NCBI GenBank assembly: GCA_964408995.1
Contig: CAYPBP010000002.1
Location: forward strand, 32,491-96,490
Source of the DNA: an uncultured Gammaproteobacteria bacterium
Lineage (GTDB): Bacteria; Patescibacteriota; Microgenomatia; UBA12405
Reading direction: 5' to 3'
DNA length: 64,000 bases
Positions 2,673 through 61,802 of this stretch are shown piece by piece. The notes under the pieces were generated by a model, which saw nothing but the letters and a program-made list of their open reading frames with translations, had not been told where the DNA came from and did not search any database. The position numbers and the translations under genes are program-made. Every line of letters begins with the position of its first letter. Positions within the stretch are counted from its first letter, which is position 1.

Positions 2673-2731
2673 GACTTATTATAACTTATAGCTTCAAAAA
2701 AGATTATTTAAAATTTAGTATAATATAAGCT

Positions 2732-2929
2732 ATGGAAGAAAGACAATGTACACGTTGTCCAGTTGATAAAGATAAACTTTGTTTTAAAAAACAGATTGAA
2801 GCTATTGCTAGCGCTGACATACCCGCATCAGTTAAAAATGAAAACATTGGTTTGCTTCGAGAAATATATAGACCAACAAATTGTAGTCATATAAATCATA
2901 ACCCTCCTTTTGACAAAAAAGGATTGTAA
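2732..2929 (+). CDS. Hypothetical small Cys-containing protein (CxxC ... C ... C)
   Basis: 65-aa ORF that ends exactly where repeat copy A begins. TATAAT-like hexamer 9 nt upstream. No recognisable domain. Confidence 0.25.
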   Translation: MEERQCTRCPVDKDKLCFKKQIEAIASADIPASVKNENIGLLREIYRPTNCSHINHNPPFDKKGL

Positions 2930-3640
2930 TTTATACCTCAATTACCAACGGTAAAACCATTGGTTGGCGGCCAGTTTAAATTTTTGATATTGCAGATATG
3001 TAATAAAAATTGCAATAATAGTATGTGCTTTATATTCAAAACCCTAAAAATTTTGCAGATAAATTTAAAACAAAATCATCTAGATTGAATAACTGGGATT
3101 ATTCTAAGCCAGGTTTTTATTTCATTACGATAAAAACATTAAACGATAATAATTTTTTTGGAAAAATTATTAATGAAAAAATTGAATTATCGGCTATTGG
3201 TAAAATTGCCAATCAATATTTAATTGATATTTCTAAACATTTTTCAAATGTAATATTGGATGAATATACTATTATGCCAAATCATTTGCATATTCTATTC
3301 CTTGTAGAGACGCCAGATCTGGCGTCTCTACAAAATAATCAAAAAATCACGTTGCTAAATTATAGCCACAATAACCATCCAGATTTTTATAATCGATTGA
3401 ATCAAAAATCAAAACAATTAATTCCAAAAATTATTCAACAATATAAATCATCAGTAAAACGAATTTGTAATCAGAACAATTTATTTTTTGGTTGGCAAAA
3501 TCGTTACTATGATCAGATTATTAAATCTAAACTAGAATTAAATAATATACGTCAATATATTAAAAATAATCCTGTTAATTGGAAAAAATAATTTATACCT
3601 CAATTACCAACGGTAAAACCATTGGTTGACGGCCGGTTTT
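2928..3640 (+). mobile_element. IS200/IS605-like (RAYT-type) Y1-transposase element bracketed by a 50-bp direct duplication
   Basis: Direct repeats at 2928-2977 and 3590-3640 (taatttatacctcaattaccaacggtaaaaccattggttgRcggccRgttt, 2 mismatches). Each contains the imperfect palindrome ccaacggt/accattgg and flanks a HUH-Y transposase gene. Confidence 0.65.
3025..3591 (+). CDS. IS200-like / REP-associated tyrosine transposase (COG1943-type Y1 HUH transposase)
   Basis: GTG start. N-terminal W-x6-G-YF-T-T box (NNWDYSKPGFYFITIKT), HUH motif IMPNHLHILFLV, and C-terminal catalytic-Tyr box WQNRYYDQIIKSK...YIKNNPVNW matching the RAYT/TnpA_REP signature. Confidence 0.8.
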   Translation: MLYIQNPKNFADKFKTKSSRLNNWDYSKPGFYFITIKTLNDNNFFGKIINEKIELSAIGKIANQYLIDISKHFSNVILDEYTIMPNHLHILFLVETPDLASLQNNQKITLLNYSHNNHPDFYNRLNQKSKQLIPKIIQQYKSSVKRICNQNNLFFGWQNRYYDQIIKSKLELNNIRQYIKNNPVNWKK

Positions 3641-5347
3641 CTTGTAAATAATTTCTTCAAGATATCCTTGGACTTCTTCCCGAATAAATTCCATATTGGC
3701 TGGAGAACTAGTGGCTTGATTGAATTTATTAGTAATTTCTATTTTTAAAAAGTCCATGAGTTCGGCATTTTCTTTCATAAAGACAAAACCACGACTAAGA
3801 ATAACTGGAGGAGTTGATAATTGACCAGACTCTTTATCTAATAGTAGAACAACTGAAAACATGCCATCTTCGGCCAACAATTTACGATCCCTTAGGACAG
3901 TAGTGCCAACATCCCCGACCCCAAAACCATCAATTAAAACTTTGCGGATGGAAATATGATAATTAGTATCAACTGTACCATTGCTATTAAAAGTAGCTGT
4001 ACCATCATAGTCGGGTAAAATAACTTGGTCTTCATTGTAACCTAATTTTTTAGCCATCAATTGGTAAGATTTTAGATGACGATAATTACCACCAATTGGT
4101 AGTAAATATTTTGGTTTTAAAAGATTAATTAAAAGAGCGTGTTCTTTTTCAAAACCATGACCAGATACATGAAGTTCTAGTTTTTCTCCGTAGACAACAT
4201 CTGCTCCCAATTTTGAAAGAACATCAATCATATTATAGATATTTGAGGTTGTACCAGGAATATAATCTGGGGATGAAAAAATGACTTTGTCTCCAGATTT
4301 AACTTTGATCCTATGTTTACCCATAATCATCTTGCTAAGAGCTGAATCTGGTTGACCAGCGAAACCAGCAACTAAAAATAATAGTTTATTATCAGCAAAA
4401 TTTTTAATTCTTTCGACTGGGACAATATCAGTATCATTTAAGGTTACATAACCTAAGTCCTTGGCAATAGTTATGGCTCTATCAACCGAAAAACCAACGA
4501 TAACTATTTTTCGACCAACACTTTTACCGTATTCAATGGCTTGAGTCCAACGAACTATGTTACTAGAAATTGAAGTTACAAAAACTCGACTTTTGGCAGA
4601 AACTATTTCATTTTTAAAATTTTGAGCAATAGAACTTTCTGATGGTGACCAACCTTCATGATCAGAACCTAAGCTGTCGGACATTAAAGCAATGACTTTG
4701 CCGGTTTGACCAACCCGAGCAATGTGTGAATAATCAGCTCCTTTGCCATCTAGAGGGAAAAGATCGAATTTAAAATCGGAACCATGATAAAAAATTCCCA
4801 TCGGAGTAGTGATGGCAAAATGAAAAGTATCAGGAATAGAATGAGTAACTCGAATAGGGTCTATGTTGAAAACACCTTTATTTATAGATGGAGTTAATTC
4901 ATCATAGACTTGAAGATTAGCCCGAATTTGAACTTCACTAAGTCTGGCTTCAATAAAAGCAGCTGCTAATTTAGGAGCAAAAACTGGAATATTATTACCA
5001 ATAATAGGAAGAATAAAACGGACAGCACCAATATGGTCTTCGTGACCATGAGTGATAAAGATACCTAAGATTCTATCTTTTTTGTCTTGAAGATAATGAG
5101 TGTCAGGAATTTGAAGATCAACACCAAAGGCATCTTCTTCTGGAAAACCAACTCCACAATCGACAATAATAATTTGGCTTTTAGAAAGATCCCCACTGGG
5201 AATATATTCATAGACGAACATGTTTTGAGTAACATCCCCAAAGCCACCAAGGGAACTGATTCGGACTGAATCATTACCAGAGCGATATTCTCGAACTTGA
5301 TTTGGAGCATTAATAATATTTTTATTTGTATTTGTATTTTTAAACAT
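3593..5347 (-). CDS. rnj: Ribonuclease J (metallo-beta-lactamase / beta-CASP RNase)
   Basis: 584 aa. HGHEDHIGA zinc-binding motif and beta-CASP layout. The C-terminus ...PMVLPLVIEV is encoded by repeat copy B. Confidence 0.85.
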   Translation of the reverse strand: MFKNTNTNKNIINAPNQVREYRSGNDSVRISSLGGFGDVTQNMFVYEYIPSGDLSKSQIIIVDCGVGFPEEDAFGVDLQIPDTHYLQDKKDRILGIFITHGHEDHIGAVRFILPIIGNNIPVFAPKLAAAFIEARLSEVQIRANLQVYDELTPSINKGVFNIDPIRVTHSIPDTFHFAITTPMGIFYHGSDFKFDLFPLDGKGADYSHIARVGQTGKVIALMSDSLGSDHEGWSPSESSIAQNFKNEIVSAKSRVFVTSISSNIVRWTQAIEYGKSVGRKIVIVGFSVDRAITIAKDLGYVTLNDTDIVPVERIKNFADNKLLFLVAGFAGQPDSALSKMIMGKHRIKVKSGDKVIFSSPDYIPGTTSNIYNMIDVLSKLGADVVYGEKLELHVSGHGFEKEHALLINLLKPKYLLPIGGNYRHLKSYQLMAKKLGYNEDQVILPDYDGTATFNSNGTVDTNYHISIRKVLIDGFGVGDVGTTVLRDRKLLAEDGMFSVVLLLDKESGQLSTPPVILSRGFVFMKENAELMDFLKIEITNKFNQATSSPANMEFIREEVQGYLEEIIYKKTGRQPMVLPLVIEV

Positions 5348-7723: not shown

Positions 7724-9928
7724 TTATCTTCGTGGGGGCCTAAAACCGCCATTAGAACGAGGTGGAGTGAAATTTCTAAAACCACCAGTGCGATTGTCTT
7801 GTTGATTATCAAAACCTTCTTCACGAGGTTGACCTGGATGAGCAGCTTTGAATTCTGGAGAAGATAATTTTATTTGATGATTATCATTGAACCCAGCGAT
7901 TTTGACGTTTAATCTGTCACCAACTTTAATAATTGAAGATGGATCGGATAAGAAACCTCCAGTCATTTCAGAGACATGTAATAAAGCTTCTCGGCCTGGT
8001 AAGAATTCAACAAAAGCACCAAATTGTTCGACTCGGGTAACAATACCTTCATAATCTTCACCAATTTGAACTTCTTTAATCATGGATTCGATTTCATAAG
8101 CAGCTTTGTCGATATCTTCCTTGCTTTGGGCAGAAATTGAAGCTTGACCATCATCATCGATATCAATTTGAACTCCATATTTTTGCATTAGGGCTTTGAT
8201 GGTTTTACCACCACTACCAATAACTTCACCGATTTTATCTTCTGGAAGACTAACCATGACAATTTTTGGAGCAAATTCTGACAACTCAGTTCGAGGAGCG
8301 GCTAAAACTGATTCCATTTTTTCTAAAATTTGAAGTCGAGCTTTAGTGCTGGCAGCAAAAGTATCAGTAATCATTTTTAAAGTGATGCCTTCTCTTTTGA
8401 TGTCTAATTGAATAGCAGTAATACCATCTTTGGTTCCAGTGATTTTGAAATCCATGTCACCAAAATGATCTTCGATGCCAGCAATGTCGGTTAATAAAAC
8501 ATAATCTTCATCAGTTTTGGCAACTAAGCCAATAGAAATTCCGGCAACTTTATCTTTAATTGGAACACCAGCGTCCATTAGAGACATGGTGGAACCACAA
8601 GTAGAAGCCATTGAAGAAGAACCATTTTGAGATAAAACTTCAGAAGTTAAAACAATAGTATAAGGAAAATCTTGTTCAGATGGAATAACAGGAAGTAGAG
8701 CTTTTTCTGCAAGAGCACCATGACCAACTTCTCTTCGACCTGGGCGACCAACTCGACCGGTTTGACCAGTAGAAAAAGGAGCAGCAGAATAATAGTGAAT
8801 ATATCTTTTGGTGGTTTCGCCACTAGAATCTTCTAAATATTGTTTATCTGCTAAAGGAGCAAGAGTAGTAACAGTGATAGCTTGAGTTAGACCTCTTTGG
8901 AAGAAAGCAGAACCATGAACGCATGGAAGAACTCCAGCTTCAACACCTAATTCTCTGACTTGGTCCATTTTTCTTTTGTCGTAACGATTACCTTTTAGAG
9001 TGTTTTCGCGGACATATTTTTTGATAATAGAATCAACTGCAGCAATGACATGGTTTTTGGAAACTTCTTCTGATTTAATTTTAGTTTCATAAGTTTCTAA
9101 AACTTGATCAATAATTTTTTCTTGACCAATCATATGAGCTCCATCAACACCAGCTTCTAAAAAGGCTTCAACTTGGGTTTTAATACTAGTTTCAATCTCA
9201 CTAATTAAAGTGGCAGATGGACCGGCTGGCTCATATTTAATTTTGGCTTTGCCACAAACTTTTGACCAGTCAGCAATTTCAATATTAATTTGATCACCAG
9301 TATTTTTGGCTAATTCAATAGCTTTTAGAGCAATATCGTTTTTGACAATATTAGCATCAGCTTCAATCATGTTTACACCAGAAGGGCCGGTGCAAACTAA
9401 TAAATCTAAATTAGAAGTTTCTAATTCTTTTTGACTTGGATTTAGAACTAATTGATCGTTGATTAAAGCAACACGAACAGCCGAAACTGGACCATTGAAA
9501 GGAATATCAGAAATAGCTAGTGCGGCCGAAGCGGCAGTGAAAGCTGGAATAATGACATCATTGGTCTTGTCATTACTTAAAACAGTAACGATGATTTGAA
9601 CTTCATTTAAAAAGTCTGAAGGGAATAAAGGTCTTAGAGATCGGTCGATAATTCGGCCAAAAAGAATGGCTGTATCAGATGGACCACCATCTCGTTTCAT
9701 CCATTTACTACCTTTGACGATACCACCAGCGTAAAGCTTGTCAACAAATTCGATGGATAAAGGAAAATAATCCTTTGATTCATCAGTTTTACCCATAATA
9801 ACGGTGGCTAAAACAGTAGTGTTGCCGTATTGAGCCACGACAGAGGCATTGGTTTGAGGAGCGAGCTTACCAGTAGATAAACTAATTTTTTTATCGCCCA
9901 CTAAAATATCTTTTGTATATGTTTCCAT
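7724..9928 (-). CDS. pnp: Polynucleotide phosphorylase
   Basis: 734 aa. Two RNase PH domains, KH (GEVIGSGGKTIKAL) and S1 (GIVTRVEQFGAFVEF) domains, plus an R/G-rich C-terminal tail. Confidence 0.92.
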   Translation of the reverse strand: METYTKDILVGDKKISLSTGKLAPQTNASVVAQYGNTTVLATVIMGKTDESKDYFPLSIEFVDKLYAGGIVKGSKWMKRDGGPSDTAILFGRIIDRSLRPLFPSDFLNEVQIIVTVLSNDKTNDVIIPAFTAASAALAISDIPFNGPVSAVRVALINDQLVLNPSQKELETSNLDLLVCTGPSGVNMIEADANIVKNDIALKAIELAKNTGDQINIEIADWSKVCGKAKIKYEPAGPSATLISEIETSIKTQVEAFLEAGVDGAHMIGQEKIIDQVLETYETKIKSEEVSKNHVIAAVDSIIKKYVRENTLKGNRYDKRKMDQVRELGVEAGVLPCVHGSAFFQRGLTQAITVTTLAPLADKQYLEDSSGETTKRYIHYYSAAPFSTGQTGRVGRPGRREVGHGALAEKALLPVIPSEQDFPYTIVLTSEVLSQNGSSSMASTCGSTMSLMDAGVPIKDKVAGISIGLVAKTDEDYVLLTDIAGIEDHFGDMDFKITGTKDGITAIQLDIKREGITLKMITDTFAASTKARLQILEKMESVLAAPRTELSEFAPKIVMVSLPEDKIGEVIGSGGKTIKALMQKYGVQIDIDDDGQASISAQSKEDIDKAAYEIESMIKEVQIGEDYEGIVTRVEQFGAFVEFLPGREALLHVSEMTGGFLSDPSSIIKVGDRLNVKIAGFNDNHQIKLSSPEFKAAHPGQPREEGFDNQQDNRTGGFRNFTPPRSNGGFRPPRR

Positions 9929-9954: not shown

Positions 9955-10224
9955 TTATTTTTTAAGACCGAGAGATTTGATAATTTCGGTGTATCTTTCA
10001 GGACTATGTGCTGAAATATAACGAAGTAAACGTCGTCTTTTAGAGATTTTGCTTAAAATTCCGCGTTTAGCTGGAGAATCGTGTTTGTTTTCAGTCAAAT
10101 GAGATTGAAGTTTTTCGACTTCCTTGGTTAAGATTGCGATTTGGACTTCTGGAGAACCAGTGTCGCCCTTATCTTGAGCATACTTATCAATAATTACTTT
10201 CTTTTCTTCTTTGGTTAATGCCAT
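9955..10224 (-). CDS. rpsO: 30S ribosomal protein S15
   Basis: 89 aa, MALTKEEKKVIIDKY...GDTGSPEVQIAILT...RRLLRYI. Classic rpsO-pnp gene pair. Confidence 0.95.
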   Translation of the reverse strand: MALTKEEKKVIIDKYAQDKGDTGSPEVQIAILTKEVEKLQSHLTENKHDSPAKRGILSKISKRRRLLRYISAHSPERYTEIIKSLGLKK

Positions 10225-10310
10225 AGATTATTTGGCTATTATCGGTTAATGTTTAATGTTTTGGAATGGCTACCAAAAGACCGAATATAGTCAGAAACGA
10301 TTATAACACA

Positions 10311-11213
10311 TCAATTAAAATTTAAGCTATCTACTATTTTTGAATCATAACAACTATCACCAGTTGAGTTTTTGGCAAGATTACATGCTTGTCCAAGTTC
10401 AAATAAGACTAATTTTCCTTTTGTTTGGTTATATCTTAATTTAACCATAAAATTCATAGGACATTCGCTTTCACCTAACTCTTTTCCATCTCCCAATATG
10501 CTGACATCAAAAGCTTCAGTGGTGTCAATTTTAGTTTTTTTACCAAGTTTACAACCTGAACCATATTTTGATTTAATAAATTGTTCTAGTTCCTCATCGT
10601 TTTTAATATTAGCAGCATAAATCTTTAGAGAAGTAATATTACCGCTAGATACCTTATCTTCTTCTATTAATTCAAAGTTAGTTTTTAATTTTTCACATCT
10701 AGAAAAATTACTTATTCCTTCTGATGTTTTTTGTTCACCGGTTAAACTATAAAAATTATCCGCTGCTAAATAAATAGTTTCCTTATTTTCAAAAAAATTA
10801 ATAGAAACATTGCCACTATTTGGTCTATAAGAATCAGGTTCTTTTTTGCATTCTACAGATCCACTTGCAAATTTTGGAATAGTTAAAGAAAAACCAAACT
10901 TATTGTTGGTATATAAATTATTATTGGCATCTTTTTCAATTAAAGTAGATTCTGTGGAAGCGAGGGTTGGAATGATAGTCGGAATTGTTTCTTCATTATC
11001 AGTTGTTTCTTGAGTTAAATCTGTGGTTAATTCTGTCGTTTGTTTGTTGTTTAATTGGTTAATTTTATTATTCAAAAGAAAATAAAAACCAATAATTAAA
11101 GCTAAAATAACAATAATCGAAGCAACAAATAAATATTTAAAAATGTTTGATTTCTTAACAGGTTCTATTGATTGAATTGGTTGAATCTCTGGATTTTGAT
11201 TTATATTGTCCAT
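10311..11213 (-). CDS. Hypothetical membrane-anchored, Cys-rich extracytoplasmic protein
   Basis: 300 aa with an N-terminal TM helix (IFKYLFVASIIVILALIIGFYFLL) and 8 Cys in the extracellular part. No recognisable domain. Confidence 0.4.
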   Translation of the reverse strand: MDNINQNPEIQPIQSIEPVKKSNIFKYLFVASIIVILALIIGFYFLLNNKINQLNNKQTTELTTDLTQETTDNEETIPTIIPTLASTESTLIEKDANNNLYTNNKFGFSLTIPKFASGSVECKKEPDSYRPNSGNVSINFFENKETIYLAADNFYSLTGEQKTSEGISNFSRCEKLKTNFELIEEDKVSSGNITSLKIYAANIKNDEELEQFIKSKYGSGCKLGKKTKIDTTEAFDVSILGDGKELGESECPMNFMVKLRYNQTKGKLVLFELGQACNLAKNSTGDSCYDSKIVDSLNFN

Positions 11214-13939: not shown

Positions 13940-13972
13940 CAATCTCCCCTAGCCCCTCTTTCACAAGAGGGG
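13940..13972. repeat. Family A GC-rich palindromic element, copy A1, in the nusA-infB intercistronic region
   Basis: caatctcccctagcccctctttcacaagagggg. The same ~35-nt motif occurs at 49741, 57555 and 61263. Confidence 0.7.
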
Positions 13973-13982
13973 AAAATTTAAT

Positions 13983-34044: not shown

Positions 34045-35982
34045 TTAATAAATATCTGGGTCGTAGATGATGTCATCATCATTTCTTGATTTTGGGTGAC
34101 GATAATCACGAATAATTTCGATACTTTCTTCAAACTCAACTAAATCACCTGGGATATCTGCTAAAAAGCGACTTGGTTCGTTTAAACTGCTTTTGCCAAA
34201 AAACAAACGACGAGAGGCATAAGAAATATAAAGATAATCCTTGGCCCTGGTAATGCCCACATAACAAAGACGACGCTCTTCTTCTATTTGAGCTTCATCA
34301 ATTAAACATCTTGAATGAGGCAAAATTCCTTCTTCAAATCCAACCATAAAAACGACTTCAAACTCTAGACCTTTGGCGCTGTGAAGAGTCATTAATTTAA
34401 CTCCATCTCTGTTTTCTTTTTTCTTATTTTTTTCTTGAAGAGAATATTCTTGCTGGACTAAAGTTATGTTTTCTAAAAAGGCAGTTAAACTTGGATAAGC
34501 AGTGGCGACAGATTTTAATTCTTTAATATTTTCAATTCTCTTTTGATCTTCTTCATCTTTGGTATCGAATTTATCAAGATAACCAGAATTGACAACTAAA
34601 GATTCTAGAATTTGAAGAGAAGTTAAATTTTTTAAATCAATATTTTTTATATGTTCTAAAAGAAGAGATTTTTTACGTTTACCTAAAGCTTTTTGGATCC
34701 TTTCTTCGGAGATATGATCGGATGGATTACTGGTAAAACGAAGCATGGATAAAATATCTTTGACTTCGGCTCGCTCGTAGAAACGAATGCCACCTAATAA
34801 AACATAAGGGATATTAAGTCGTAAAAAAGCTTCTTCCAAAACACGAGACTGAGCATTCATTCGATAAAGAACAGCCATATTCCTTAATGGAATTTTCATA
34901 TTATCATTGATGAATTTTATTTTTTGAGCAATAAAATCAGATTCAGCAACTTCGGATTCGGCTTCAAAAATTTTGATTTTATCTTGGGAAAACTTTTTGG
35001 TAAATAATTTTAAAATTGGATGAGAATTATTTTTGGAAATAACTGAATTGGCAGCATCGAGAATAATCTGAGTCGAACGATAATTTTCTTCGAGATTAAT
35101 AACTTTAGTATTTTTAAAATCAGCAGTAAAACTAATAAGATTACGATAATCGGCTCCACGCCAACCATAGATGGCTTGAGAAGCATCGCCGACAACTGTA
35201 ATTTGTTTATATTTTTGAGCTAAAAGCTTGGTTAAAAGATATTGGATTTGATTGGTGTCTTGATACTCATCAACCATAATGAATTTATAGATTTCTTGAT
35301 ACTTAGCTAAAACCTGTGGATGTTCTAAAAATAATTCAACTGTTTTAAATAAAAGATCATTAAAATCGAGAGCATGAAATTCAAATAATTTTTTTTGATA
35401 AAGAGAGTAAATTTTACTGGCATAATCTTGCCAAAAACCATGGCTTTGAGCAATCATATCTTTTGGAGTTTGAAAAGAATTTTTAGCGGCTTCGATGTAA
35501 TAGAGAACACTTGATGGTTTAAATTCTTTGGTAGTTAGTCCTAATTCGTGAAGAATATTTTTAATTAAATTTTCTTGATCATTAGAATCGTAAATAACAA
35601 AAGTTGGAGGAATGCCAATATTGTTACCATCAATTCTTAAAACTCGACAACAAAAAGAATGAAAAGTTCCCGCCGACAGCTTCGCAGTCTTGGCGGGCAG
35701 GCCCGCTTCGTATCCAGATTTGGCGGGCAAACCGACTTTATTTTTTTCTTTTGAAATTAATTGTTCCATTCTCTTTTTCATTTCATCAGCGGCTTTGTTG
35801 GTGAAAGTTAAAAGTAAAACTTCTGATGGTTTAGCAATTTTTTGTTGGATGAAATAAGCCACCCGATGAGTTAGAACACGAGTTTTACCTGAGCCAGCAC
35901 CAGCCAATAGAAGCAAGGGTGAACCAATATGAGTCACCGCTTCTTTTTGAGGTGGATTTAAACCGTCTAGAATATTAACCAT
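34045..35982 (-). CDS. uvrD: UvrD/PcrA-family DNA helicase
   Basis: LNPPQKEAVTHIGSPLLLLAGAGSGKTRVLTHRVAYF, TFTNKAADEM and the downstream SF1 motifs. Contains a GC-rich in-frame insert at 35668-35736. Confidence 0.88.
   Translation of the reverse strand: MVNILDGLNPPQKEAVTHIGSPLLLLAGAGSGKTRVLTHRVAYFIQQKIAKPSEVLLLTFTNKAADEMKKRMEQLISKEKNKVGLPAKSGYEAGLPAKTAKLSAGTFHSFCCRVLRIDGNNIGIPPTFVIYDSNDQENLIKNILHELGLTTKEFKPSSVLYYIEAAKNSFQTPKDMIAQSHGFWQDYASKIYSLYQKKLFEFHALDFNDLLFKTVELFLEHPQVLAKYQEIYKFIMVDEYQDTNQIQYLLTKLLAQKYKQITVVGDASQAIYGWRGADYRNLISFTADFKNTKVINLEENYRSTQIILDAANSVISKNNSHPILKLFTKKFSQDKIKIFEAESEVAESDFIAQKIKFINDNMKIPLRNMAVLYRMNAQSRVLEEAFLRLNIPYVLLGGIRFYERAEVKDILSMLRFTSNPSDHISEERIQKALGKRKKSLLLEHIKNIDLKNLTSLQILESLVVNSGYLDKFDTKDEEDQKRIENIKELKSVATAYPSLTAFLENITLVQQEYSLQEKNKKKENRDGVKLMTLHSAKGLEFEVVFMVGFEEGILPHSRCLIDEAQIEEERRLCYVGITRAKDYLYISYASRRLFFGKSSLNEPSRFLADIPGDLVEFEESIEIIRDYRHPKSRNDDDIIYDPDIY
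35668..35736. repeat. GC-rich palindromic/tandem element (family C) in-frame within uvrD
   Basis: ttcccgccgacagcttcgcagtcttggcgggcaggcccgcttcgtatccagatttggcgggcaaaccgac, which encodes VGLPAKSGYEAGLPAKTAKLSAG between helicase motifs Ia and Ib. GC far above the local background. Confidence 0.6.
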
Positions 35983-35994
35983 GAGTAGAATTAA

Positions 35995-38094
35995 CTATAG
36001 TTGGTAAAGCTTAGTTTTACCAGACTGAAAAATAACTTGAGCGCCTATTTTTTGAAAATTAGATTCATTTAAGTTGGGATATTTTTCATATTCTTTGGTG
36101 CCAACAAAAATATATTTAATATTATATTTTTGAATTAAACTTTTTAATATATCAATATCTTTACTTTCATAGATAGATTCAACATCGTTTTGACGCTGTT
36201 TTGGTTTGTCATAGCCACCACGCCAAAGCCATTCATGAACAATCCAACCTTGGACTGTTGGTAAACCAGTATTAACAGAAACTTGATTGAAAGTAGTGTA
36301 ACTATCACCAACTGCTTCAAGCATTACTGGTTGACCAGATATATTTTGATTAATCCAATTGATAACTTTAAAATTATCTGGATAATCATTTTTTAAATAA
36401 TTTAATCCCCATAAACCTTTGTAATCTTTTAGACTATAAAAAGATTTAATAGCAAAATAAGGATAGATTAAATGAATAGCAAAAATTAAAGTGAATAATA
36501 TTCCATATAAAGTTTTAAGCCATTTTGATTTTAATAATAATCTGGTTTTATAAAAAACATAACCAGAGACTAAAGAGTACATAATAAAGGCTTGGTAAGT
36601 TAATTTAAACATGGTATTAGCTCGACGATATTCATTAATATAAATATCTTTTAGATAAATTAACTCTGGAATAAAGACTAAAATAGTAGCAGTAATAATA
36701 ACAGCTAAGATAAATAAATCAGAATTAAATAAATTTCTAATTTCTAATTTCCAATTTTTAAAAAAGAATTTTTTAATAAATAAAAATATTAATGGTAAAC
36801 AAATTAACCAAAAACCACCATATAAAATAAACAATTGATAAAAAGGAGTATGACTATCAGCGATATTAATACCCTCGCCCATGGGAATAAAATTTAGGGA
36901 AAAAGGAATAGAAAAAATAAACCAACAAAGAATAGTTAAAAATCCATTGATAAGTGTTTTTTTAAGAGCAGTTTTATAATCATTTTTTAAATTTAAAAAT
37001 AAAGTAAAAATAGCAAAGAGAAGACCGTAAATGGCAAAGTCCCAAGCATTGGTCATATAAGCAATTGAAAGATTAAAACCAGAAATAATAACTAAAGAAA
37101 AATTAATTAATGAAAATCCAACAAAACTAGAAGCAATTAAAAAAGCCATAAAAAATAAAATGATAGGAATGTCATTCATATGACCATGAAGATCGGCAAC
37201 TATAAAACTATAAGCAGGGAATTCATGGATTGTTTTATCTTGAGTCTCGGGATCATAACCAATAAAACGAGTGGCATCTGGATACCAATAAGTATTGGCT
37301 GATTCTAAAATAGCTGATTTGGTTAAAACTAATTTTTCATTATTTTTAATATTTGTTTTGGCAATTTTATAAACAGAGTGAAGGTTGCCACCAAAAGTTA
37401 GAAGTAAGACCGAAATAAGACCAGCGATAATTATTTTTTGAAAGTTAATTTTTTTTAAAGACAAAAAAACTAAATTAGAAGCGATAGAAAAAGTGGAAGA
37501 AAAAGTTAGGGCACAAACAGTGGCAATTGAAAGATTGTAAGTAATAGCTGAACTGATATTACTTAATTTAGTAAGAACGGCAAAAATGAGATGACCAAAA
37601 TAGTAGTAATTAATAACTTCACCAGAAAACCACATATCTTGAGGTGGTAAAAATTTTGACCTTAAAGCAGAATTGACAAATCCCCAATCCATGAATTTTT
37701 CAAGACCTTCTATGTCTGGAGCAAATCCCCTGACCAAAGACCAAGTAAATAAAATTAATAAGAAAACTATTTCTTGAAAAATAAAAGTTTTGTAATTGGC
37801 TTTGATTGTTTTTAGAAAGTTTGAGAAACGATTTTTGGATTTAAGAAAAATAACATTGACTATTAAAATTGAAAATATTATTAAAATTAAAAAAATATTA
37901 GTAAATGGCAAAAGCTTAAAAACTCCACCGATGAAAACTAAATAAGTTAAAACAATAATAGAAATAACTTTTGAAAAGATGTAACCCTTATCCCAAAATT
38001 TATTAAAAAGATAAAAAGTGACAGGTAAGGAAATTAGACCTAGTCCAAAAATCAAAAAGTACCAAGAAAAAATAAAACTAAAATCGGCTAACAT
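35995..38094 (-). CDS. Polytopic GT-C-fold membrane glycosyltransferase-like protein (paralog 1, 699 aa)
   Basis: More than 12 TM helices, a Gly/Trp-rich first loop with acidic residues, and a soluble C-terminal domain. Confidence 0.5.
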   Translation of the reverse strand: MLADFSFIFSWYFLIFGLGLISLPVTFYLFNKFWDKGYIFSKVISIIVLTYLVFIGGVFKLLPFTNIFLILIIFSILIVNVIFLKSKNRFSNFLKTIKANYKTFIFQEIVFLLILFTWSLVRGFAPDIEGLEKFMDWGFVNSALRSKFLPPQDMWFSGEVINYYYFGHLIFAVLTKLSNISSAITYNLSIATVCALTFSSTFSIASNLVFLSLKKINFQKIIIAGLISVLLLTFGGNLHSVYKIAKTNIKNNEKLVLTKSAILESANTYWYPDATRFIGYDPETQDKTIHEFPAYSFIVADLHGHMNDIPIILFFMAFLIASSFVGFSLINFSLVIISGFNLSIAYMTNAWDFAIYGLLFAIFTLFLNLKNDYKTALKKTLINGFLTILCWFIFSIPFSLNFIPMGEGINIADSHTPFYQLFILYGGFWLICLPLIFLFIKKFFFKNWKLEIRNLFNSDLFILAVIITATILVFIPELIYLKDIYINEYRRANTMFKLTYQAFIMYSLVSGYVFYKTRLLLKSKWLKTLYGILFTLIFAIHLIYPYFAIKSFYSLKDYKGLWGLNYLKNDYPDNFKVINWINQNISGQPVMLEAVGDSYTTFNQVSVNTGLPTVQGWIVHEWLWRGGYDKPKQRQNDVESIYESKDIDILKSLIQKYNIKYIFVGTKEYEKYPNLNESNFQKIGAQVIFQSGKTKLYQL

Positions 38095-48645: not shown

Positions 48646-50079
48646 ATGAACTCAAAAAAATTTTTTATAACTACCCCAATTTATTACATTAACGATATTC
48701 CTCATATAGGACATACCTGTAGTACTGTGGCGGCGGATATTGTGGCCCGATTTCACAGAGCAAAAAATGAAGAAGTATTTTTTCTAACTGGCACTGATGA
48801 ACATGGACAAAAAGTAGCTGAACCAGCAATCAAAGCAAATCTAAATCCAAAAGAATATTGTGACAGTATTGCTCCCCGATTTGAAGAAGCTTGGAAGGCT
48901 TTAAATATTAGTCATGATTTTTTTATTAGAACAACCGATTCTAGACATGAAAAAATAGTCAATGAATTTTTACAAAAAATTTATGACAAGGGTGATGTTT
49001 ATAAAGCAAAATATGAAGGCTGGTATTGTGTCGGCTGTGAAAAGTTTTTAACTGAAGTGGAATTAGTTGACAAACATTGTTCTCTTCATCCACCAGAGAA
49101 AACTGTTTTTAAAAGTGAAGAAAATTGGTTTTTTAAATTAAGCAAATATATTCCTCAAATTATTAAATTAATTGAGGATGATAAAACTAATTATATTTTC
49201 CCTGAAGGAAAAAGATTAGAAATATTATCAAAACTTAAAAAAGAAGAAATTAGAGATATTTCAATTTCCAGAGAAAACGTGGAATGGGGCATTCCTACAC
49301 CTTGGGATTCTAAACAAACTGTCTATGTGTGGTTTGACGCTTTAATTAATTATTACAGTGCAACTCAATTTGTTGAAGGTAAAAAAGATTTTTGGCCAGC
49401 AAGTGTTCACTTATTAGCTAAAGATATTTTGTGGTTTCATACAGTTATTTGGCAAGCCATGCTTTTATCAGCTGACTTACCATTACCTATAAAAACTTTT
49501 ACTCATAGTTTTTATTTAATTGATGGTAATAAAATGTCAAAATCTTTGGGAAATGTAATTAGCCCAGGTCAATTAGTAGAAACTTTTGGAGTTGATGGAT
49601 CTAGGTATTTAATTGCCAGATCTTTTCCTGGAGAAAATGATAGTGATGTAGGAATTGAAAGATTTAAGGAAAAATATAATGCTGATTTAGCAAATAATTT
49701 AGGGAATTTAATTTCTAGAGTAGCAAAGTTAGCTGAAGGCCAATCTCAATCTTCCCCCGACCCCTTCTTTGACAAGACGGGGAGTTTTAATGAAGAATTT
49801 GAAAACTTAATTGAGAAATTTGATTTTAATCAGGCGATTGCTTTAGTTTTTGATAAATGGATTGATAGTTCAAATTTAAAATTGAATCAAACTACACCAT
49901 GGAAATTAGAAAAAGATAATACTGATAGAATTACAGTCTTAAATGAATGTATCAAAAACATTTTGAAAGCTGCTTTCCATTTGCAAATTTTTATGCCAGA
50001 AGTGGCCCAAAAAATTGAAAATTGTTTCAAAGATGAAGTTAAACCACTTGAGGAATCTTTATTTCCAAGAATAAAATAA
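48646..50079 (+). CDS. metG: Methionyl-tRNA synthetase (short form, no C-terminal tRNA-binding appendix)
   Basis: HIGH (PHIGHTCS) and KMSKS (KMSKSLGN). Contains the in-frame family A element at 49741-49783. Confidence 0.95.
   Translation: MNSKKFFITTPIYYINDIPHIGHTCSTVAADIVARFHRAKNEEVFFLTGTDEHGQKVAEPAIKANLNPKEYCDSIAPRFEEAWKALNISHDFFIRTTDSRHEKIVNEFLQKIYDKGDVYKAKYEGWYCVGCEKFLTEVELVDKHCSLHPPEKTVFKSEENWFFKLSKYIPQIIKLIEDDKTNYIFPEGKRLEILSKLKKEEIRDISISRENVEWGIPTPWDSKQTVYVWFDALINYYSATQFVEGKKDFWPASVHLLAKDILWFHTVIWQAMLLSADLPLPIKTFTHSFYLIDGNKMSKSLGNVISPGQLVETFGVDGSRYLIARSFPGENDSDVGIERFKEKYNADLANNLGNLISRVAKLAEGQSQSSPDPFFDKTGSFNEEFENLIEKFDFNQAIALVFDKWIDSSNLKLNQTTPWKLEKDNTDRITVLNECIKNILKAAFHLQIFMPEVAQKIENCFKDEVKPLEESLFPRIK
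49741..49783. repeat. Family A GC-rich palindromic element, copy A4, in-frame in metG
   Basis: caatctcaatcttcccccgaccccttctttgacaagacgggga, which encodes QSQSSPDPFFDKTG in the anticodon-binding domain. Confidence 0.65.
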
Positions 50080-51429: not shown

Positions 51430-51472
51430 AAGTTATTATAACAAATCCACCCCTACCCCTCCTTTGATCCTC

Positions 51473-51509
51473 CTTCGTCCCGCAGCGGCGGGACTACGGA
51501 CGGACGAAG
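51473..51509. repeat. GC-rich palindromic element (family B, copy 2) downstream of folD
   Basis: cttcgtcccgcagcggcgggactacggacggacgaag. Alternative nested stems, preceded by a C-rich tract. Confidence 0.55.
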
Positions 51510-51525
51510 CAATAGGGGGTAATTT

Positions 51526-55112: not shown

Positions 55113-55699
55113 GTTTGACGAGTTTCAACTAAAGAAAAACCCTTAAACTCAAGAGCTTCTTGAAAACTCTTTGTAACTTCGGCGATATCTTTGACATCAA
55201 TTGATCTAACAAAAGTTTCAGGATTAATAGTTTTTAAAAGTTCGACGGCATTGATTGGTTGGTTAAGATTTCCAAGTGGTGTTGATTTCGTTTGTGAACC
55301 TTTTGGAGTGGTGGGGCTGGTTTGACCAGTGGTTAAACTGTAAAGAAAATTATTAGAGACAAAAACAGTAATATCGATATTGGCCCGAGCAGCAGTAATT
55401 AAATGATTTAGACCTTCACCATAAATACCACCATCTCCACCAATAGCACAAACAGTAAGATTGGGGTTGGCTATTTTTTCGCCCATAGCCATGGCAATAC
55501 AACGACCATGAAGAGTATGAACTCCGTAGGTTTTTAAAAAATCAGCCATATTACCAGCACAACCAATGTCATAGTTCATGACAAGATCAGATGTTTTGAT
55601 TTTAAGGTTATTGAAAGCAGTTTGAAGAGCAGCAAAAACTAAATAATTATGACAACCAGGACACCAAGTTGGAGCTATTTGGGATTTATAATTAATCAT
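55076..55699 (-). CDS. 2-oxoacid:ferredoxin oxidoreductase, beta (TPP-binding) subunit
   Basis: CPGCH, GDGG and TPP-binding fold motifs. Confidence 0.85.
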   Translation of the reverse strand: MINYKSQIAPTWCPGCHNYLVFAALQTAFNNLKIKTSDLVMNYDIGCAGNMADFLKTYGVHTLHGRCIAMAMGEKIANPNLTVCAIGGDGGIYGEGLNHLITAARANIDITVFVSNNFLYSLTTGQTSPTTPKGSQTKSTPLGNLNQPINAVELLKTINPETFVRSIDVKDIAEVTKSFQEALEFKGFSLVETRQTCIAFGKQLIVG

Positions 55700-57426
55700 A
55701 GTGTTAAACCCTCTGCCCTTCGGGCATCTCCCTTAACAGGGCGACTTTTTAATAATTTAATAATTTCTTCTGGAAAGAATGGACGACCATTGTTTTTGTT
55801 AATAATTTTGCTTGGACTAAATTCAAATTGAGACTTTAAAAGAGTGACTAATTGATTAGTTTCATTATTTTCGATGACAATAATTTTTTCAAAAGCATCA
55901 ATTATTTTTTTAATATCTGGATTGATTGGCCAAAGAGTTTTTATTTGTAAGAAAGCGAAGTCTTCTTTATTTTTTATTAATTTCAAAGCTTCTAAAATGG
56001 CACCTTTTGGAGAACCCCAACTAATAATTAATTTAGTGGCTTTTGAAGATCCAAATAAATTTGGCTTTGGACAAATTTTTAAAGCAGTTTTTAATTTTAA
56101 TAATCTTTTTTGAGACATTTTTTCGGAAAGAGAGGCATCTTCCGTTGAAAAACCAACTTCATCATGTTCGTAACTATTGGCTAAAAATTCACCATTTGGA
56201 GTACCTGGAAGAGTAAGAGGAGAAATACCGTCTTTGGTAAAGGCATATCGTTTGAAACTGTTTTCTTCAACTTCATTTAAGATTTTACCTTTGTCTATTT
56301 TTACTTCCATACTTGGAAAATATTTGGTACTAGCACTTGATTCGGCAACTAGTTTGTCACTTAAAACAATGACTGGTGTTTGAAGAATAGCCGCTAAATC
56401 TAAAGATTTGTGACCTAATTCAAAAGATTCATTAATATCACCTGGGGCGACAACAACTTTTGGGAATTCACCATGACCAGAATAAATGGCATGAAATAAA
56501 TCTCCTTGACTAGTCCAAGTGGGTAAGCCAGTGGCTGGACCTGGACGAGATACTAAATAATAGACCATACCGATTTCAGAAATGCCACAAAAACTAACAG
56601 CTTCGTTCATAAGGGCAAATCCACCACCTGAAGTGCCCGTAGCAGCTCTAGCACCAGCAAAAGCGGCACCAGCAGCCATGTTGGCAGAAGCAATCTCGTC
56701 TTCTGGATGATTTACGTTTAATTTAAATTCTGTTTGTTTACTAGCTAGGAAATGAAGAGCACCAGTGGCTGGAGTCATAGGATAGGCTGAATAAAAATTG
56801 CCACCACCTTTGATAAATCCCCAACCATAAGCTTCGTTACCATCATAAAAACCTTTTTTGGTTTTTTTAGTTGGTTTTTTTATTTTGATTTGATATTTAG
56901 AAAAATTTTCTTTGGCATAATTATAAGCAAGAGTAAAAGCAGCTAAATTTACATCAGCATGTTTTCCATAAGATTGAGAGATGTGATTTTTAGCTAAATC
57001 AATATCTAAATCATAAAGATAAGCAGCAACACCTAGACAAAGAGTATTCATAACCAAGGGATTGCCGGCTTGAGTAGCCATATCTTTTAGAGGTAGATTT
57101 AAGAAATTAGCTTTGCTTTTAACTTCGGTAAAGTCTTCATCAGAAAAAACTAAAGTCTTTTTAGTAAATTCGTCTTGATGTTGTTGCCAATGGTTTGGAT
57201 AAACTGAAAAGAATAAATCAACATTAAAGTGAGTTGAAAAAACTTCTTGATCAGAGAAAGTAATTTGATAGGTATTATGACCACCTCTAACCAAAGATGG
57301 ATATTCACTGTAATCAGATAGATGGAAACCATGATCAATTAAGAGTTTTGAAAAAATTTGACCAGCAGACTTGATTCCGGAACCAGCCGGACCAGAGATT
57401 TTGATGGTGGAAAAATTTAAGCTCAT
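55696..57426 (-). CDS. 2-oxoacid:ferredoxin oxidoreductase, fused gamma-alpha subunit
   Basis: N-terminal gamma-domain (GPAGSGIKSAGQIF) followed by the alpha-subunit core (YPMTPATG). A 4-bp overlap with the beta gene. Confidence 0.85.
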   Translation of the reverse strand: MSLNFSTIKISGPAGSGIKSAGQIFSKLLIDHGFHLSDYSEYPSLVRGGHNTYQITFSDQEVFSTHFNVDLFFSVYPNHWQQHQDEFTKKTLVFSDEDFTEVKSKANFLNLPLKDMATQAGNPLVMNTLCLGVAAYLYDLDIDLAKNHISQSYGKHADVNLAAFTLAYNYAKENFSKYQIKIKKPTKKTKKGFYDGNEAYGWGFIKGGGNFYSAYPMTPATGALHFLASKQTEFKLNVNHPEDEIASANMAAGAAFAGARAATGTSGGGFALMNEAVSFCGISEIGMVYYLVSRPGPATGLPTWTSQGDLFHAIYSGHGEFPKVVVAPGDINESFELGHKSLDLAAILQTPVIVLSDKLVAESSASTKYFPSMEVKIDKGKILNEVEENSFKRYAFTKDGISPLTLPGTPNGEFLANSYEHDEVGFSTEDASLSEKMSQKRLLKLKTALKICPKPNLFGSSKATKLIISWGSPKGAILEALKLIKNKEDFAFLQIKTLWPINPDIKKIIDAFEKIIVIENNETNQLVTLLKSQFEFSPSKIINKNNGRPFFPEEIIKLLKSRPVKGDARRAEGLTL

Positions 57427-57499
57427 CTGACTATTTTACTACATATTTGTTGAATTTTATAAAAAATGATTAAAACTCCCTTTGCCCTTAATAAAAACC

Positions 57500-57548
57500 C
57501 ACCTTCCCTGAAGGGCCCCTTCCTCCCTTGAAAAGGGAGGTCTATAAA
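57500..57548. repeat. Family D multi-hairpin element (copy 2) in the korA / DEAD-helicase divergent intergenic region
   Basis: aaaacccaccttccctgaagggccccttcctcccttgaaaagggagg, similar to 11300-11346. Confidence 0.5.
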
Positions 57549-57554
57549 GTTTTT

Positions 57555-57589
57555 CAATCTCCCCCTGCCCCCTCTTTCACAAGAGGGGG
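57555..57589. repeat. Family A element, copy A2 (intergenic, directly after the family D copy)
   Basis: caatctccccctgccccctctttcacaagaggggg. Confidence 0.7.
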
Positions 57590-60599: not shown

Positions 60600-61802
60600 T
60601 CATTTTTTCTTCTCTTTTAAATATTTTTTATCTTTTAGTTTTTCAGGCAAAAGGCTTTCTTTTGTGTACATTTCATAGTCTTTGCCATAATCTAATTCTT
60701 TCATTAACTTAGTTTCGGCGTTGCGGAGATTAAGCGGTATTGGTAGATTACCAAACTGCTGAACATCGGCAAGAGCGGCTAAATAAGCATCATAAGCAGA
60801 ACGATCTTTAGGACTTTTGGCTAGATAAACAACTCCATGAGCTAGGTTTTCTCGACACTCTGGATAGCCAATTGTTTCAACAGCTCTGAAAACTTCATTG
60901 GCCATCATTAAAGCTGAAGAATTGGCAATACCAATATCTTCACTGGCAAAAATAACCATACGACGGGCAATAAATTTTGGGTCTTCGCCAGCATCAATCA
61001 TTCTGGCTAAATAATAAAGAGCAGCATCTGGATTACTGGCTCGCATAGATTTTATAAAAGCAGAAATGGTATTGAAGTGATCCTCCCCTTTTTTATCGAA
61101 ACGTAAAAAACTATTTTGAAGAGTTGATTTTAAGTTTTCTTTAGAAAGATCGTTATATAAAGTGAAAGCATTATCAATCATGGTTAGAGCCTGACGAGCA
61201 TCACCATTGGCCATTTGAATTAGCCATTCTTTGGCATCTTTTTTGATAGTTAATTTTTTATTCAATCTCCCTAAATCCCTCTTTGACAAGAGGGACTTAT
61301 TAATGACATCAATTGCTCTAGTGATTATTTTGTCAATATCTTCATCTGACAATTCTTTGAGGGTGAAAACTCGACAACGAGATAAGAGTGGAGAAATAAC
61401 TTCAAAACTGGGATTTTCGGTGGTGGCACCGATTAAAGTTAGAAGACCGGATTCTACATAGGGTAGCAAAAAATCTTGTTGAGCTTTATTAAAACGATGA
61501 ATTTCGTCTAAAAAAAGAATTACTCTTTGAATAGGTCTGGCTTGAGCAATAATTTTTTTAATATCGTCTTTGCTAGCAGAAACAGCTGATAATTCAAAAA
61601 TCTGGGCATCTGTTTCTTTGGCAATAATTTTGGCTAAAGTGGTTTTACCAACCCCTGGAGGACCCCAAAAAATCATAGAAAAGAATTGTTTGGATTCGAT
61701 TAATTTCCTTAAAGGTTTTCCCTCCCCAACTAAATGAGATTGACCAATAAATTCATCAAGGTTTTTAGGACGTAGAAGAGAGGCTAGCGGTTGAGTAAGC
61801 AT
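60600..61802 (-). CDS. rarA: Replication-associated recombination protein A (MgsA/RarA AAA+ ATPase)
   Basis: LRPKNLDEFIGQ, Walker A GPPGVGKTT, and the MgsA C-terminal helical domain. I place the start at MLTQPL. Contains the in-frame family A element. Confidence 0.9.
   Translation of the reverse strand: MLTQPLASLLRPKNLDEFIGQSHLVGEGKPLRKLIESKQFFSMIFWGPPGVGKTTLAKIIAKETDAQIFELSAVSASKDDIKKIIAQARPIQRVILFLDEIHRFNKAQQDFLLPYVESGLLTLIGATTENPSFEVISPLLSRCRVFTLKELSDEDIDKIITRAIDVINKSLLSKRDLGRLNKKLTIKKDAKEWLIQMANGDARQALTMIDNAFTLYNDLSKENLKSTLQNSFLRFDKKGEDHFNTISAFIKSMRASNPDAALYYLARMIDAGEDPKFIARRMVIFASEDIGIANSSALMMANEVFRAVETIGYPECRENLAHGVVYLAKSPKDRSAYDAYLAALADVQQFGNLPIPLNLRNAETKLMKELDYGKDYEMYTKESLLPEKLKDKKYLKEKKK
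61263..61295. repeat. Family A element, copy A3, in-frame in rarA
   Basis: caatctccctaaatccctctttgacaagaggga, which encodes (reverse strand) ...KSLLSKRDLGRL... in the linker between the AAA+ and C-terminal domains. Confidence 0.65.

Follow-up and report, generated by a model that had tools for sequence, protein, structure and literature searches.

A GC-rich in-frame stretch of a uvrD/pcrA helicase gene very probably consists of tandem copies of a dispersed 33-nt hairpin element

Why does the gene for a core DNA helicase in an AT-rich genome carry a short run of GC-rich, in-frame codons between two of its motifs? The window analyzed here, a 64-kb stretch of DNA with an overall GC content of 31.4%, contains on its minus strand an intact uvrD/pcrA-type superfamily 1 helicase gene (open reading frame (ORF) 34045..35982, 645 aa). 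Positions 35668-35736 of this gene, read on the minus strand, form 23 in-frame codons with a GC content of 59%; they are translated as VGLPAKSGYEAGLPAKTAKLSAG and are flanked by TFTNKAA (motif Ia) and GTFHSF (motif Ib). We conclude with high confidence that this segment is made up of two tandem copies, one complete and the other truncated, of a GC-rich hairpin element of 33 nt that is dispersed in Candidatus Shapirobacteria and in related low-GC genomes that probably belong to the candidate phyla radiation (CPR).

The helicase ORF matched the full-length Pfam profile UvrD-helicase (E 6e-86), the UvrD_C profile (E 1e-62) and the PcrA structure 1pjr (E 8e-140). Its closest relatives are annotated as Candidatus Shapirobacteria, and the orthologue comparisons were based on the 120 closest uvrD protein orthologues, which are Shapirobacteria sequences of 69-94% identity, and on the DNA of 61 loci. 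The first-pass annotation of this DNA had described the 69-nt in-frame stretch between motifs Ia and Ib, and its coordinates and sequence were reproduced. The paired tracts that it reported were located as two all-GC 6-bp stems, CCCGCC..GGCGGG at 35669-35697 and GCCCGC..GCGGGC at 35701-35728, with GCGGGCagGCCCGC at the center (35693-35706), and its direct repeat was recovered as 24 nt at 35685-35708 and 35715-35738, 75% identical and spaced by 30 nt. Stems of this 6-bp all-GC type occur at five places only in the 64 kb. About a dozen GC peaks of at least 58% (40-nt windows) are present in the window, and the helicase stretch, with 59% over 79 nt, is among the longest.

Tandem Repeats Finder called no array at the stretch because the two units are too diverged. 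The 10-mer TTGGCGGGCA, allowing up to one mismatch, was found three times in the window against 1.0 expected, an unremarkable count that 12 of 100 shuffles equaled. Folding of the single sequence gave z scores of only -0.9 (RNA) and -1.6 (DNA), which are not significant. Support for the hairpin comes from covariation and not from folding energy, and its significance from comparison with other sequences. The parts of the stretch to which this comparison refers are the following:

35669..35701, minus strand: unit B, the complete 33-nt element, mRNA strand CCTG CCCGCC AA GAC T GC GAA GC T GTC GGCGGG
35702..35731, minus strand: unit A, a truncated and diverged 30-nt tandem unit, mRNA strand TTTG CCCGCC AAATCTGGATACGAA GCGGG, with its stem at 35701-35728
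35732..35736, minus strand: GTCGG (Val-Gly codons), read from the sequence as what decay has left of the GCGGG arm on the 5' side of unit A (L007, L071 and L049 have GCGGGC at the equivalent position)
35647..35668, minus strand: the motif Ib codons directly 3' of the hairpin, mRNA AAC UUUU CAU UCUUUUU GUUGU, with a U-rich tract from 3 nt past the stem

Unit B encodes (G)LPAKTAKLSAG, and the Ala-Gly codons of the conserved AGTFHSF (motif Ib) lie in the 3' arm of this unit. It is identical to the family consensus and to the copies at loci L072 (RadA) and L088 (23S rRNA). R1, a covariance model built from element copies elsewhere, matched positions 35667-35701 on the minus strand with 59.5 bits (E ~5e-13), and this was the sole match in the window. 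Unit A encodes (G)LPAKSGYEAG and has kept the outer stem of 5-6 bp and lost the inner stem; it was not matched by R1 because it is too truncated to score. Comparable 30-nt internal units are found in L057 and, three times, in L007, and unit A resembles the 5' half of the single unit in L121. Compared with the window, either L121 may have lost a unit by unequal exchange or a fresh copy may have landed 3' of GCGGG in the window lineage.

The loop between motifs Ia and Ib is the single hypervariable spot across the 120 orthologues. Many close orthologues lack the insert and have a short loop such as KNKENIFAG. One LPAK unit is present in the closest orthologue (P0001, 94% identity), two are present in P0033/L057 and four in L007, and the peptides found here in other lineages are quite unlike these. 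The annotation had put the usual length of this loop at about 10-15 residues, an estimate that broadly holds: at this point the window protein is about 17-19 residues longer than PcrA (1pjr) and E. coli UvrD, and most of the 120 orthologues also have shorter loops. At the DNA level, the object conserved among the 61 loci is the hairpin GCGGGC-CTG-CCCGCC-AA-NNN-T-GC-NNN-GC-T-N'N'N'-GGCGGG. Its 5' arm is translated in a different frame (SGPARLNAKLLAG) in L010, P0078 and P0045, and the peptide is therefore incidental. As judged from these alignments, the conserved entity is a DNA or RNA hairpin rather than a peptide. Many orthologues have peptides that end in LWAG, LLAG or LTAG, and these are decayed copies. 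The duplicated GLPAK peptide of the first-pass annotation is thus real to the extent that both units encode (G)LPAK, but it is the hairpin that is conserved. The annotation had also treated orthologues with an equally extended loop as evidence against an insert. Such orthologues do exist (L057, L007, L014, L049 and others), but this argument is invalid, as they carry the same nucleotide element, in L010 in another frame.

An alternative is that the segment has a purely local origin, having been produced within a permissive loop by replication slippage or template switching and having no relation to sequences elsewhere, or that GLPAK is repeated as an adaptive peptide of this UvrD. In its favor, various palindromes and short tandem repeats accumulate in this loop in other lineages (L004, L008, L017 and L058), which makes it a hotspot, and L007 contains three perfect 30-nt units. 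Slippage can explain the number of tandem copies but not where the unit came from. The peptide is missing or replaced by another in close relatives and is predicted to be disordered, and the explanation is contradicted by identical stretches of 29-33 nt at about 25 unrelated loci in several frames, described below. We regard it as highly improbable.

Other palindromes were observed at the same uvrD site in other Shapirobacteria. They include the perfect palindromes GTAGAGACGCCCCGACGGGGCGTCTCTAC (ETPRRGVST) and GTAAGGGCGAATCATGATTCGCCCTTAC (VRANHDSPL, with a compensatory variant in L005), at 10229-10257 in L008 (29 nt) and about 10236-10263 in L004 (28 nt, perfect). No copies of these palindromes were found outside uvrD in the window and in 1.1 Mb of uvrD-centered loci. 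Some uvrD loops (L017, L006, L022 and L058) have 7-nt tandem repeats in place of hairpins, such as three copies of CTACGAT in L017 (TIYDLRSK) and three of CACTCAG in L058. The viral loci L107-L120 (~50% GC) contain near-identical intergenic GTAG...CTAC palindromes, one of which is followed by a T run.

A metagenome scan was performed with the pattern CCCGCCAA-N3-TGC-N3-GCT-N3-GGCGGG, in which the outer stem, the bulge and the apex stem were the sole fixed parts. The scan yielded 40 loci, about 33 of them on low-GC contigs and 4 in uvrD. About 25 distinct, unrelated non-uvrD low-GC sites carry the same 29-33 nt in unrelated flanks; outside the stem, nothing is conserved apart from YYTG (about 4 nt) at the 5' end and, in part, 1-2 nt (T/TC) at the 3' end, and the element is near-identical across contigs of 30-51% GC. 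Most of the non-uvrD copies are located within long ORFs, where they occur in both orientations and occupy at least five of the six frames. The host genes, read from their translations, encode serine hydroxymethyltransferase, RadA (two copies), RarA, MurB, LigA, ComEC-type proteins, a VirB4-like ATPase and QueH, together with a class II ribonucleotide reductase that has the element at an identical site on two contigs. RadA alone was confirmed by search, the other non-uvrD hosts being recognized from sequence, and the RadA contig (L072) belongs to Shapirobacteria by its named homologues.

The element is also found in and near RNA genes. The 23S rRNA gene of Ga0256830_1000693 (L088; 23S rRNA 1015-4670) has two 178-nt AT-rich insertions, at 3114-3291 and 3998-4175, each with the hairpin at its center; one of them lies at position ~583 of the large subunit model, and the AT-rich 178-nt unit that contains the hairpin is specific to this contig. 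Another copy on this contig (L091 11310-11344), with the same immediate flanks, lies 53 nt upstream of the transfer-messenger RNA gene. A scan of viral contigs for the element gave 0 matches, and there is therefore no evidence for a phage vector. Across these loci, the element is dispersed, frame-neutral and palindromic. The earlier description of an in-frame GC-rich family element in a core gene is supported both by the orthologue alignment, in which the insert is missing from many close orthologues and a 94% relative has one unit, and by the metagenome search; the repeat search it proposed recovered the same hairpin at the unrelated loci, but no second copy in the window.

The complete unit consists of YYTG, a 6-bp GC stem (CCCGCC/GGCGGG), an AA bulge, a variable and covarying 3-bp stem, a U.U mismatch and a GC/GC stem that closes a triloop, mostly G-N-A. 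The apex is GC-GNA-GC in 20 of the 31 distinct copies and R-N-A in 27. The element is 33 nt long, exactly 11 codons, and its consensus is stop-free in all six frames; therefore, it adds an 11-residue peptide within genes and leaves the frame unbroken. The stop-freeness was considered as a special adaptation, but this is weak, as it is true of the consensus and of just 19 of the 31 copies, and because 25% of composition-matched shuffles are also stop-free.

The inner triplet covaries among the uvrD loci (GAC/GTC, GTC/GAC, CAC/GTG and AAA/TTT). In the set of 31 copies, three stem pairs were not constrained by the search pattern, and each of them shows double changes (13 cells in total); 97% of the cells are paired, and the covariation score was reached by 0 of 500 shuffles. 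The uvrD-resident copies, gathered by protein homology alone, have 95.8% of their cells paired and double changes at five pairs (15 cells), again matched by 0 of 500 shuffles; where just one side of a pair has changed, the result is mostly a U.G on the mRNA strand (8 wobble cells). The copy of L121 (94% identical) reads CCTGCC..ATC.AC...GT.GAT.GGCAGG, with three GC-to-AT double substitutions and all 11 pairs retained.

This degree of pairing raises the possibility that the hairpin is kept for a host nucleic-acid role in the uvrD mRNA, for example to attenuate or terminate transcription, to govern RNase action or stability or to pause translation, and that the other copies represent a re-used module. 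The retention of 11 of 11 pairs in the orthologous copy of L121 and the pairing and mostly U.G one-sided changes of the uvrD-resident copies would fit such a role, yet the hairpin is wholly absent from many close orthologues, and copies occur in both orientations relative to their host genes and in rRNA. Similarly, the U-rich tract UUUUCAUUCUUUUU begins 3 nt past the stem, and T runs directly follow the copies in L085 and L094; the tract, however, is simply the stretch of codons for the conserved TFHSFCC, and in L057, another carrier of the element, it is poorer in U. A scan for promoters and terminators did not call the hairpin site as a terminator, and an Rfam 15 scan of 35300-36100 found nothing overlapping 35667-35736 even at E values up to 10. 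An intrinsic (Rho-independent) terminator was rejected, since the site is uncalled and lies within an intact, conserved gene, and since the stretch rich in U does not follow the stem immediately but begins 3 nt past it. A host role in the mRNA is compatible with a dispersed element, but we consider it unlikely as the explanation of the segment.

Evidence for insertion comes from filled and empty sites. Locus L012 has a copy at 8523-8557 (46.8 bits with R1) within the gene of a DUF2298 membrane protein adjoining uvrD, and its uvrD loop is empty; the window shows the reverse, with uvrD filled and the DUF2298 gene empty. Comparison of L012 with L057 gives an insert of exactly 33 nt, located at the apex of another hairpin, CCCTGCCCTG^TCAAGGGAAGGG. 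Similar apex positions are seen for the second copy of L072 and for L103 and L102, and in L032 and P0073 a further insertion lies in the apex of the element itself. Removal of the 33 nt from uvrD leaves GCG GGA ACT and restores AGTFH. The stem arms act as inverted repeats, and GCGGG is repeated at both borders in uvrD, L081 and L076. A target-site duplication was sought at all sites and none was consistent; most sites outside uvrD, L081 and L076 have no duplication.

The same data bear on the idea that the dispersed hairpin is a motif recognized by the host, for instance in DNA uptake or by a genome-maintenance protein that binds it, and that it arises and is maintained by selection or biased conversion and not by transposition. 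Uptake sequences (USS/DUS) occur in both orientations and mostly within genes. The element resembles them in being mainly intragenic and in both orientations, its near-identity across contigs of 30-51% GC would be in line with maintenance, and copies are present in ComEC-type genes, which is probably coincidental. However, uptake signals occur about once per kb, and the density here is ~1 per 64 kb or lower; moreover, the exact 33-nt insertion against an empty allele is not a point mutation of prior sequence, and nested and tandem copies are typical of insertion or slippage. A recognition motif is accordingly given little credence here.

Protein structure was predicted by AlphaFold2 from an alignment of 67 sequences. 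Residues 81-100 formed a coil with a pLDDT below 50, between a helix (62-80) and a strand (103-106), and the insert falls within a gap of the alignments with PcrA and UvrD. The 23 extra residues are predicted to form a disordered, tolerated surface loop.

Variable segments were also observed in a DUF2298 membrane protein and in RadA. In the window, the DUF2298 gene (35995..38094) has an empty loop LKKINFQKIIIAG at about 37380-37505 on the minus strand, which is a second insertion hotspot. Its orthologues have PSLSREGxRRAGGF (L001, L003 and L006), PCPVKGRVREGF (L014 and L057), IPSEVEGSL... (L051) or the LPAK element in another frame (L012) at this place, and all these fillings are encoded by GC-rich hairpins. 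Among Shapirobacteria RadA orthologues (P0121-P0240), the regions around query residues ~178-196 and ~400-430 vary from 19 to 67 residues, and the variable segments hold peptides typical of translated GC hairpins, namely SPLNKGRSL, PSLEKGGQ, GLRQGYGGQ and DPPTASQ..RAG.

The states of the element are patchy on the uvrD tree. The relatives L014 (filled, 10150-10340) and L122 (empty, 2432-2600) were considered as a clean insertion in uvrD, and this was rejected: the flanks are ~90% identical in the alignment shown, and the entire loop of 45-70 nt is replaced. The 'empty' allele of P0060 resembles the allele of another clade (P0003 and P0013). Such near-identical flanks around a swapped loop suggest that loop alleles have been exchanged between lineages by homologous recombination via the conserved motifs.

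The dispersed 33-nt element could have reached this state as follows. It would spread as DNA, the candidate routes being a single-stranded hairpin handled by a trans-acting enzyme or template switching, and would tend to land at the apex of pre-existing hairpins or beside GCGGG. Slippage or unequal exchange between the repeated arms may give rise to tandem units, as may a new insertion 3' of GCGGG. Once resident, copies would decay under AT mutation pressure with the stem retained, and homologous recombination through the conserved flanking motifs would shuffle the loop alleles among lineages.

Several points weigh against the dispersed element as an explanation. The copy number looks very low, with one site in the 64-kb window and, by R1, one non-uvrD copy in ~1.1 Mb around uvrD in 66 other genomes, so the element is unlike the classical families of repetitive extragenic palindromes (REP), Rickettsia palindromic elements (RPE) or miniature inverted-repeat transposable elements (MITE). 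Neither a transposase nor a parent element was identified, nor was there a consistent target-site duplication; the ORFs of the window were not screened for Y1 transposases. The closest filled and empty pair of uvrD is a cassette replacement, and no de novo insertion was seen in uvrD itself. Compensatory evolution of the orthologous resident copies is unexpected for purely selfish, inert DNA and may reflect a constraint on the hairpin, imposed by the host or by a mechanism. Finally, the taxonomy of the host contigs other than that of RadA is inferred from low GC and gene content.

The element was compared with known short repeats. RPE (RPE-1 to RPE-10) are described in a review as ~100-150 bp long and Rickettsia-specific (PMC10969869), and nearly half of the ~44 copies in R. 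conorii were reported within ORFs (PMC10969869, summarizing Ogata et al. 2000). As far as that source describes them, the element is like RPE in being a dispersed palindromic repeat of a reduced, AT-rich genome that lies in-frame in unrelated, intact housekeeping genes, adds a peptide at permissive surface positions and also occurs in or near RNA genes. As in RPE, many unrelated loci are involved (~25 distinct non-uvrD metagenome loci), and the copies are in-frame in intact genes of unrelated function. In contrast, it is far smaller, being 33 nt and GC-rich, is found in Shapirobacteria/CPR-type hosts at an apparently very low copy number per genome, and has no sequence relationship to RPE.

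REP and REPIN sequences, associated with RAYT (IS200/IS605-like Y1) transposases, are also dispersed, imperfect palindromes of 20-40 nt with compensatory stem changes, and the 33 nt, 11 base pairs, bulge and mismatch of the element agree with this size. Like REP, it is plausibly handled as a single-stranded DNA hairpin, and the insertion of other elements into REP palindromes parallels the nesting seen here. However, the 5' GTAG/GTGG of REP is replaced by C/T-C/T-T-G/A, and REP are extragenic, number tens to hundreds per genome and often form inverted doublets; the element is the opposite, mostly intragenic, rare and arranged in direct tandem units. MITE are ~50-500 bp and derived from insertion sequences, and no longer element related to the 33 nt was found at any locus. 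The behavior of the element matches RPE and its size matches REP, and the defining features of both fail.

Mobile GC clusters of yeast mitochondrial genomes are short, GC-rich and palindromic; they lie in intergenic regions, in rRNA and in-frame in var1, are polymorphic between strains and prefer AG-flanked targets. The element is like them in forming short GC-rich palindromes in a very AT-rich genome at intergenic, rRNA and in-frame protein sites. It differs in being bacterial and of different sequence families, and no homology is implied. DNA mini-hairpins of the type d(GCGNAGC), studied by Hirao, Yoshizawa and co-workers, are reportedly extraordinarily stable as single strands. The apex of the element shares this motif (20 of 31 copies), which is a structural motif and not a genetic element; its relevance, by analogy, would be to a single-stranded DNA intermediate. 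Literature searches on palindromic, MITE or in-frame elements in CPR, Patescibacteria and Microgenomates returned no description of such an element.

A wider proposal, to which we give slightly less than even weight, is that Shapirobacteria-type CPR bacteria harbor a class of hairpin elements not described before, GC-rich, stop-free and only 33 nt (11 codons) in length. Such ultra-short elements would be mobile between loci and genomes, favor hairpin apices or sites 3' of GCGGG, colonize disordered 'safe harbor' loops of essential proteins and rRNA expansions, and then evolve under a hairpin-preserving constraint. Much of the variation in length among CPR core proteins would then derive from these elements and from two or more further hairpin families seen at the same hotspots, and the elements would offer a tractable model for selfish DNA becoming coding. 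In-frame 'selfish' palindromes have long been seen as a peculiarity of Rickettsia, and an independent, much smaller analogue in CPR suggests that they recur in reduced, AT-rich genomes with little intergenic space. Lineage-specific indels derived from hairpins in marker genes (uvrD, radA and 23S rRNA) can mislead alignments, phylogenies and annotation, and the hairpins mark loops of essential proteins that are permissive. The copies form a decay series that begins with a perfect hairpin, passes through stems with compensated GC-to-AT changes and ends in ordinary 'xLWAG' codons, and this series shows the stepwise absorption of inserted DNA into a protein. The preserved stem in orthologous copies also raises the question of whether host or replication machinery maintains the hairpins.

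Further hairpins were observed in the window. A second family, CCCCTCTTT(C/G)ACAAGAGGGG, has four copies: at the nusA/infB junction (13954-13977), in-frame in methionyl-tRNA synthetase (49763-49786, SPDPFFDKTG), intergenic (57570-57589) and in-frame in RarA (61277-61300, KSLLSKRDL). The RarA site is the loop that holds the LPAK element in the RarA of L084, and SPFFDKTG is found in the linker of one RadA orthologue. At 57497-57542, an intergenic GC-rich double hairpin (CCTTCCCTGAAGGG..CCTCCCTTGAAAAGGGAGG) resembles, when reverse-complemented, the element encoding PSLSREGxRRAGGF in L001, L003 and L006. An 81-nt palindromic stretch with 59% GC, CTTCGTCCCGCAGCGGCGGGACTACGGACGGACGAAG, lies at 51444-51524, just downstream of folD (minus strand). 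Finally, a GC-rich hairpin (TGCCC-TTCG-GGGCA) at 55706-55748 encodes the C-terminal tail ..RPVKGDARRAEGLTL of ORF 55696..57426, a 576-aa protein similar to 2-oxoacid:ferredoxin oxidoreductases, and this tail looks like a translated element or a read-through terminator.

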